The notes under the pieces: generated by a model
Seen by the model: the letters and a program-made list of their open reading frames with translations, nothing else
What the model was told of the DNA's origin: nothing
Databases searched by the model: none
From: a virus
Lineage: Duplodnaviria; Caudoviricetes
IMG/VR virus record: IMGVR_UViG_3300011335_000826
Location: 1 to 64,000 of that record
DNA length: 64,000 nucleotides
Direction: 5' to 3' (one strand)
In this document: piece by piece, positions 36,452 to 36,511 of the stretch
Position numbering within the stretch: position 1 is the stretch's first letter
How the letters are laid out: each line of letters begins with the position of its first letter
Translations under genes and position numbers: made by a program

Positions 36452-36511
36452 ATAGGATGCTGCATGGTGCGGGTCCTATAGTCTACTTGCTTATCTAAGG
36501 AGAAACCCATG
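36452..36511 (+). promoter_or_regulatory. Second ROSE-like leader (same architecture as hsp20)
   Basis: ATAGGATGCTGCATGGTGCGGGTCCTAT hairpin; CTTGCTT-ATCT-AAGGAG. Confidence 0.65.

Follow-up and report, generated by a model that had tools for sequence, protein, structure and literature searches.

A two-hairpin leader resembling ROSE thermometers precedes hsp20 and a gene for a small helical protein in a large phage

Results

Two genes of the window share a two-hairpin leader

The window, that is the whole stretch of DNA analysed here, comprises the first 64 kb of an 88,253-base IMG/VR virus record, derived from a large uncultured freshwater phage, with a CheckV completeness of 26%, which suggests a full genome size of approximately 340 kb. 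Two genes on its plus strand are preceded by similar leaders. The first gene, hsp20 (26416-26862), codes for an IbpA-like small heat-shock protein of 148 amino acids (Pfam HSP20, E = 2.1e-15; PHROG 432, 1e-37; NCBIfam IbpA NF008013, 4.4e-33) and has its leader at 26354-26418, with the ATG at 26416. It is located between a 90-aa ORF, which follows clpX (24855-26060), and clpS (26906-27226), and the hsp20-clpS adjacency is also found in Pseudomonas phage PA5oct. The second gene (36509-36790) codes for a protein of 93 amino acids without a Pfam family, and the 60 bases at 36452-36511, with the ATG at 36509, form its leader. The statement of the initial annotation that the two products are unrelated is in agreement with these assignments.

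Upstream of the hsp20 leader, a promoter-like site (26319-26349) consists of TTGACA (26319-26324), a 17-nt spacer and TATAAA (26342-26347), and a T4-late-type sequence, TATAAATA (26342-26349), overlaps it. A consensus promoter scan missed the TATAAA hexamer as it required a T at position 6 of the -10 element. Judged by the overlap of this sigma-70-like site with the T4-late-type sequence, hsp20 could be read by both kinds of holoenzyme. For the 93-aa gene, a -10-like hexamer, TACAAT (36441-36446), ends 5 nt before the first hairpin, and in the relatives such hexamers are mostly found 5-9 nt before this hairpin, with a mode of 5 nt. Because of this spacing, hairpin I probably forms the extreme 5' end of the mRNA, as it does in Pseudomonas, at or within 1-2 bases of the predicted start.

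Hairpin I of the hsp20 leader (26354-26379) has a 7-bp lower stem that includes the wobble U26360.G26373, a bulged G26361, a 4-bp upper stem and a UGG loop, and reads UGUAGAU, the bulged G26361, CCCA, UGG and UGGGGUCUACA. Its counterpart in front of the 93-aa gene (36452-36479) has a 7-bp lower stem ending with U36458.G36473, a bulged G36459, a 5-bp upper stem and the same UGG loop, and reads AUAGGAU, the bulged G36459, CUGCA, UGG and UGCGGGUCCUAU. Folded alone, the two hairpins have free energies of -11.6 and -11.9 kcal/mol (z = -2.5 and -2.8). Between the two copies, the lower stems differ either in four pairs or by one inserted G-C pair, with the pairing intact either way, and the upper stems differ by one inserted pair, again with pairing intact. 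After hairpin I, both leaders continue as (A)GUC(A)UACUUGCUUAUnnAAGGAGAAAC, and the ATG follows 3-4 nt further. They have the 22-mer ACTTGCTTATNNAAGGAGAAAC in common (26391-26412 and 36485-36506), which contains hairpin II. In hsp20, this hairpin (26392-26408, loop AUUA) covers the Shine-Dalgarno (SD) sequence AAGGAG (26403-26408) through the pairs C26392-G26408, U26393-A26407, U26394.G26406, C26396-G26405, U26397-A26404 and U26398-A26403, with G26395 bulged. In the 93-aa gene leader (36486-36502, loop AUCU; SD at 36497-36502), the equivalent pairs are C36486-G36502, U36487-A36501, U36488.G36500, C36490-G36499, U36491-A36498 and U36492-A36497, and G36489 is bulged. The leader of hsp20 also carries a spacer segment, GUCAU (26386-26390), which is complementary to A26416-C26420, the start codon plus AC, and forms in the minimum free energy fold an outer helix that closes the ribosome-binding domain. 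Both leaders read exactly as the initial annotation had quoted them, including the bulged G and the UGG loop.

Allowing three mismatches, the 22-mer occurs at exactly two sites in the window (none in 100 shuffles) and at two sites in the whole record. A covariance model, R1, which we built from 37 leaders, likewise finds only these two copies in the record, with 78.3 bits for the 93-aa gene and 47.6 bits for hsp20, and the next match has 14.9 bits. The window thus holds no third copy, as had been stated before. Weak R1 matches at 54447 and 21762 were judged not to be members, and an inspection of the region around 49500-52000 did not reveal a leader.

Hairpin I is conserved as an RNA structure among relatives

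Protein-guided scans of IMG/VR located hsp20 at 80 loci and the 93-aa gene at 55, with many of these loci on contigs of 320-520 kb, and the leader is present at nearly all of them. It is missing from two hsp20 genes, which are fused to the end of the preceding gene, and from two copies of the 93-aa gene, which have a bare promoter. At the loci L097 and L109 (around 2900-3000), hsp20 has no leader and the final codons of the gene upstream (...DAEVKE) contain its SD, a sequence arrangement which suggests that translational coupling to dnaK replaces a separate gate.

When the complete leaders were aligned with MAFFT alone, the 3' arm was out of register and RNAalifold predicted no pairs; in place of this alignment we used a model-based alignment and alignments anchored at the bulge, one of which, A2, is anchored only at the bulge and its flanking pair. 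In every single-sequence fold, a stem is followed by U or C, then by the bulged G and a C, and finally by an upper stem of small size, which closes a loop that varies. Across 62 distinct leaders of related phages of approximately 350 kb, 96.0% of the hairpin I cells in A2 can pair, double changes are found in 10 of the 11 pairs, and the covariation score is 0.878 as compared to 0.29 in shuffles (reached in 0 of 500). When the partner strand was slid by 1-3 columns, pairing fell to 27-43%. G.U pairs make up roughly one in ten of the paired cells, and the bulge sits in the 5' arm without exception; what is conserved is therefore a structure of the sense RNA and not a DNA palindrome or duplex. 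We conclude that hairpin I is a real RNA structure. The compensatory changes in the lower stem, which the initial annotation had seen between two copies and for which it had called for a comparison with homologues, are hence borne out at both levels. Within the core, Y-G(bulge)-C / G-G, G8 does not vary at all, and conservation reaches at least 90% at C9, G19 and G20.

These features bear on the suggestion that the leader acts at the level of DNA, be it as a palindromic operator or a cruciform where transcription starts, or as a transcription terminator or attenuator. We regard such a DNA-level element as very improbable. Hairpin I does lie at the predicted +1 and a separate, genuine operator-like inverted repeat is found just upstream of the 93-aa gene, but it is the complementarity and not the sequence of the half-sites that is conserved. 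The many G.U pairs and the asymmetric bulge speak for the sense RNA strand, the stem is not followed by a U-run, and where the leader stands in an operon after dnaK, it has no promoter.

For hairpin II, the register C-G, U-A, U.G or C-G, bulged G, C-G, U-A is possible in 100% of the cells of 45 distinct leaders. The pair beside the bulge alternates between U.G (26) and C-G (19), and the closing pair is C-G in 43 leaders, G-C in one and A-U in one. As the SD sequence is fixed, covariation in hairpin II is minimal, and the register shows compatibility with the pairing rather than proof of it. The U(U/C)GCU motif, present as UUGCU at 26393-26397 and 36487-36491, is strongly conserved in alignment A1 (84 leaders), in which the G, C, U, U and A are each conserved in at least 90% and the second position is U or C. 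The outer helix, in which the spacer pairs with the start codon (GUCAU with AUGAC), has at least 5 bp in 37 of 42 distinct hsp20 leaders, with compensatory changes where the second codon differs, as in L076 (UUUGACA with UGUCAAA) and in L052 and L081. It is present in the hsp20 leader of the window and absent from the 93-aa gene leader of the window and from dnaK leaders.

The leader is confined to a small set of genes

In five complete relatives (343-524 kb), R1 finds 2-3 strong copies each, and each strong copy precedes hsp20, the 93-aa gene or a Pfam HSP70 gene. The relatives G002 and G003 carry one leader before dnaK (start MSKVIGIDLGTTNS; Pfam HSP70, E = 3.5e-240), followed by a second leader and hsp20. 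All 41 sites with the exact 22-mer in IMG/VR likewise precede a small heat-shock gene or the 93-aa gene, and these include highly divergent small heat-shock genes behind TATAAATA promoters. Many of the hsp20 leaders in relatives follow TATAAATA, which is the T4 late-promoter consensus. A further candidate in a relative, L195 (G005:134853-134917), consists of a hairpin plus GUUGCUUAACUUGGAG before a 78-aa gene and was rejected, as were other weak R1 matches in the relatives; its score of 18.5 bits (E = 0.2) is not significant. By eye, the product of this gene resembles the RNA polymerase omega subunit, RpoZ (MARIVSEDAVKAVENRFDLVLIASRR...).

R1 also matches upstream of hsp20 in all eight cultured phages tested (16-31 bits), namely the cyanophages S-SM1, S-SSM4, P-TIM40, S-RSM4, S-SRM01 and S-SSM7, Pelagibacter phage HTVC104P and Pseudomonas phage PA5oct. 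No Rfam family, ROSE_3 included, was detected in these eight leaders. With blastn, the hsp20 region had no match among cultured phages, and the matches of the 71-nt leader were mostly noise, apart from the hsp20 leader of S-SM1. hsp20 itself is present in hundreds of cyanophage records. In bacteria, R1 has matches immediately 5' of ibpA-like genes in Ferrimonas marina and on a gammaproteobacterial contig of 1.14 Mb (25.9 bits; this metagenome-assembled genome (MAG) leader, L202, reaches 31.5 bits with ROSE_3). A scan of genome contigs for relatives of hsp20 returned five loci only. Two of these five, on MAG contigs labelled as Haliscomenobacter sp. (L199) and Derxia sp. (L201), are hsp20 genes with 79% and 74% identity behind a phage-type leader (R1 47.7 and 43.5 bits); these contigs are probably phage DNA binned into MAGs, or else they give weak hints of hosts.

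The 93-aa protein belongs to a phage-only family

The 93-aa protein is predicted to be all-helical, with three helices in its AlphaFold model (pLDDT 80). Its 749 homologues all derive from metagenomes or viruses and are all unnamed or annotated as hypothetical. The initial annotation had called the gene phasin-like and had proposed a shared RNA module that links a chaperone to a PHA-granule protein. The first part of this proposal, a cis-acting RNA module on a very small set of genes, holds, while the PHA-granule assignment comes down to matches below threshold: TIGR01985 matches with E = 0.014 and 15.8 bits against a cut-off of 99.7, nine of 16 family members match PF09361 (Phasin_2) at E <= 1, the best with E = 0.0011 and below the cut-off, and the nearest named Atlas clusters are Phasin_2, PHB_acc and PHA_synth_III_E, at 0.84-0.89 and thus under 0.9. 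A profile search of solved structures and a Foldseek search with the AlphaFold model retrieved nothing specific. These hints are weak yet consistent, and we treat the likeness to phasins as a lead and not as a finding.

A 61-aa ORF (36792-36977) directly 3' of the gene has its own AAGGAG, and its product also starts with MFT; searches of Pfam, PHROGs and NCBIfam placed it in no family. On the 5' side, between a divergent gene on the minus strand (35949-36323) and the 93-aa gene, lies a perfect 16-nt inverted repeat (36385-36431; ATGTGCGGTCGCAGCA / TGCTGCGACCGCACAT) with a 15-nt spacer, or 21-nt arms at 90% identity, which ends over the -35 region. Relatives have one palindrome of the type ATGTTGC-N3-GCAACAT at this position. 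The repeat looks like an operator.

The leaders resemble ROSE_3

ROSE-like thermometers are a textbook class of RNA. When the leaders were compared with the ROSE models of Rfam, as the initial annotation had proposed, ROSE_3 (RF02523) aligned to both over model positions 1-69 of 69, including both hairpins and both bulged Gs, with scores of 24.1 and 26.4 bits (E = 0.099 and 0.026 in E-value mode, 6 kb against all families), which are below the gathering score of 43. At gathering level, the window has no Rfam match, and a genome-wide search with ROSE_3 gave no match at E <= 1. The leader before dnaK in relative G002 (L189) scores 24.8 bits. By sequence, we consequently speak of a resemblance to ROSE_3, which stops short of Rfam-grade membership. 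The ROSE_3 consensus has a hairpin I of GGAUGCCGAA..CGGGUCC with a bulged G and a hairpin II of CUC(G)CUGA-loop-UCAGGAG, with the G in brackets bulged, and the phage leaders place CUUGCUU against AAGGAG in the register of this model. The U(U/C)GCU/SD pairing is what defines ROSE-like elements (Krajewski et al., 2013, PMC3669281), and the hairpin that had been described as an identical anti-SD hairpin in both leaders corresponds to it. The geometry of a U.G pair, a bulged G and a C-G pair has been seen in the crystal structure of the oppF P2 stem (PMC11342760). ROSE-like thermometers have two to four hairpins; the combination of a stable 5' hairpin with a labile SD hairpin is found in both leaders, and the location in the 5' UTR of a heat-shock gene applies to hsp20 and, in relatives, to dnaK, whereas the 93-aa gene is no known heat-shock gene.

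In the ROSE register, the ribosome-binding domain of hsp20 (outer helix and hairpin II) has predicted free energies of -8.0, -5.7, -3.5, -0.8 and +1.0 kcal/mol at 5, 15, 25, 37 and 45 °C, respectively, and melts in the energy model between about 25 and 45 °C. Hairpin II alone has -1.4 kcal/mol at 15 °C and +1.0 kcal/mol at 37 °C, compared to -7.8 kcal/mol at 37 °C for the ROSE_3 consensus. In partition function calculations from 5 to 50 °C, the SD was about half unpaired throughout, with no temperature switch, and among 51 genes of the record the two ribosome-binding regions rank 6-18 and are not structure outliers. Deletion of the bulged G in silico lowered the probability that the SD is unpaired from approximately 0.5 to 0.02-0.09, in parallel to experimental bulge deletions, which are repressing (PMC3669281, PMC11342760).

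Discussion

By sequence and anatomy, the leader described here is kin to the ibpA leaders of Gammaproteobacteria, which are of the ROSE_3 type. Its most likely role, as judged from the combined analysis, is to gate the translation of a small chaperone regulon of the phage, with temperature and/or the binding of Hsp20 to its own leader as the input. For the region 36452-36511 itself, we favour with reasonable confidence the interpretation that it is the 5' untranslated leader of the 93-aa gene mRNA and acts as a short ROSE-like translational gate, which could be opened by warming and/or by the release of Hsp20. In such a gate, hairpin I would probably stabilise the mRNA and aid the folding of the labile second domain. 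Hairpin II would mask the SD AAGGAG with CUU(G)CUU through the U.G wobble, the bulged G and the C-G pair, and for hsp20, of the two genes, a further 5-bp helix between GUCAU and the start codon would add to this. The weak structure of hairpin II would gate binding of the 30S subunit. The gate might open upon warming, or when phage Hsp20, bound to the leader in the manner of E. coli IbpA, is titrated away by unfolded protein. The outcome would be a small post-transcriptional proteostasis regulon that is independent of host sigma-32 and comprises hsp20 and the 93-aa gene, plus dnaK in relatives. The analysis establishes the sequence of the leaders, their conserved and covarying structure, their likeness to the ROSE family and their restriction to these genes; repression of translation, a response to temperature and Hsp20 binding are what we infer.

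The second of these inputs has a precedent and fits well. In E. coli, IbpA attaches to the ROSE-type leader of its own mRNA and keeps translation repressed for as long as it is not titrated away by aggregates, and this self-repression requires R93 and an aromatic residue at position 34 (Cheng et al., 2023, PMC10474464). In the phage Hsp20 protein, R101 and Y41 correspond to R93 and Y34, and at the positions of the basic pair R97/K98 the protein has Q105/T106, with K104 adjacent (K104-Q105-T106); the PA5oct protein has a lysine at the R93 position. R93 is an arginine that is conserved widely among small heat-shock proteins, and R101 lends weak support to leader binding. One might go further and speculate that the phage has an aggregation sensor of its own, with the leader as operator, in which Hsp20 binds the bulged-G leader of its own mRNA as well as those of the dnaK and 93-aa gene mRNAs, accumulating unfolded virion proteins titrate Hsp20, the synthesis of chaperones and of the coat-like protein tracks the folding load of the infection and not temperature, and the 93-aa protein is a new Hsp20 partner that coats clients or granules. 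We consider this extended version unlikely.

Could the leader be an expression cassette without any sensing? Hairpin I would then protect the 5' end against 5'-end-dependent decay, CUUGCUUA together with AAGGAG would be a strong ribosome-binding site or enhancer, and the module would give a constitutively high output and would have spread as a unit. In line with such a cassette, hairpin I is stable and coincides with the predicted 5' end. The predicted hairpin II is marginal and leaves the SD half open whatever the temperature, and the degree of structure in the ribosome-binding regions is not unusual for the phage; furthermore, a stabilising and folding role was proposed for hairpin I of Pseudomonas by Krajewski et al. 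(2013, PMC3669281). We regard a constitutive cassette as improbable. Opposite the SD, U(U/C)GCU and its bulged G are invariant, which is the exact ROSE signature, and the module is restricted to just 2-3 of several hundred genes per genome, which are chaperone genes. In addition, the homologous bacterial ibpA and ibpB leaders are proven thermometers (PMC3669281), and the covariation of the spacer with the start codon in the hsp20 family favours masking.

A switch operated purely by protein is in our judgement improbable. Hairpin I, and perhaps hairpin II, would bind a phage or host RNA-binding protein other than or besides Hsp20, and temperature would have no role. The core of hairpin I is indeed conserved far past the needs of a generic stabilising stem, IbpA binding to such leaders is known (PMC10474464), and in the cyanophages S-RSM4 (L208) and S-SSM7 (L211), hsp20 and its leader directly follow regA, which is annotated as a translational repressor. 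The same core is, however, part of the consensus of the Pseudomonas ibpA thermometer, in which hairpin II alone confers thermoregulation (PMC3669281), and in the window it is clpX and not regA that precedes hsp20. We retain a ROSE-like gate, open to warming, to Hsp20 release or to both, as the preferred reading.

The simplest history is that phages took up an ibpA-type gene together with its leader and that a freshwater lineage then copied the leader to dnaK and the 93-aa gene. Few host-like genes are as widespread in large aquatic phages as those for small heat-shock proteins. A ROSE-type leader would allow these phages to tune chaperone synthesis to temperature or folding stress independently of the promoter and without host sigma-32, for hsp20 from cyanophages to Pseudomonas phage PA5oct and for dnaK and the 93-aa gene in freshwater jumbo phages. 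It also marks the 93-aa protein family as a likely phage proteostasis partner and makes its function testable. In the literature that we searched, we found no paper linking ROSE-like thermometers to phage hsp20. The ROSE-like switch is of a known kind, and its use in phages is absent from the papers searched. Only two or three RNA thermometers are counted for phage genomes in this literature (PMC11182007), and if our interpretation is true, ROSE-type leaders would by comparison be by far the commonest class of phage RNA thermometer.

The closest known system is the Pseudomonas ibpA leader, the ROSE_3 type element studied by Krajewski, Nagel and Narberhaus (2013, PMC3669281). Like the phage element, it is a two-hairpin leader of approximately 60 nt of an IbpA-type gene, has a stable hairpin I with a GAUGCC...GGGUC core and a bulged G, and covers the SD in hairpin II with U(U/C)GCU, the G of which is bulged. 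The differences are found above the bulge of hairpin II, where the phages have CUU/AAG in place of CUGA/UCAG and a far weaker structure (+1.0 versus -7.8 kcal/mol at 37 °C), in the extra helix that would mask the AUG of phage hsp20, which is unpaired in Pseudomonas, and in the promoters, which are sigma-70-like or T4-late-like and not sigma-32-dependent; the phage element is also found on dnaK and the 93-aa gene. The enterobacterial ibpA and ibpB leaders (Cheng, Miwa and Taguchi, 2023, PMC10474464; bioRxiv 10.1101/2020.04.20.050740) have the same hairpin II motif as the phages, and R1 matches the Salmonella ibpB leader with 19.2 bits and, locally, CUCGCUGAUUUCAGGAG in hairpin II of the ibpA leader, but the enterobacterial ibpA leaders form three to four hairpins as compared to two in the phages.

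More distant candidates were also considered. A fourU thermometer was rejected, as no U4 tract lies opposite the SD and the ROSE match accounts for the anatomy, and for the latter reason the promoter/stem-loop shuffling cassettes of T4-type phages were set aside. The ROSE-like thermometers of ABC-transporter genes such as oppF (PMC11342760) share with the phage leaders the U.G wobble, the bulged G and the C-G pair opposite the SD as well as the location on non-heat-shock genes, but they are bacterial, control other genes and have no first hairpin of the ibpA type with its conserved bulged G. In phages, RNA thermometers have previously been reported for lambda cIII and SPbeta blyA (as cited in PMC11182007). 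As with the leaders described here, these are phage-encoded translation initiation regions, and theirs are temperature-sensitive; they differ in that they belong to other structural classes, act on single genes in single phages and serve the control of lysis and lysogeny or of lysis, whereas the leader of hsp20 and the 93-aa gene would place a ROSE-like gate on a phage chaperone regulon.
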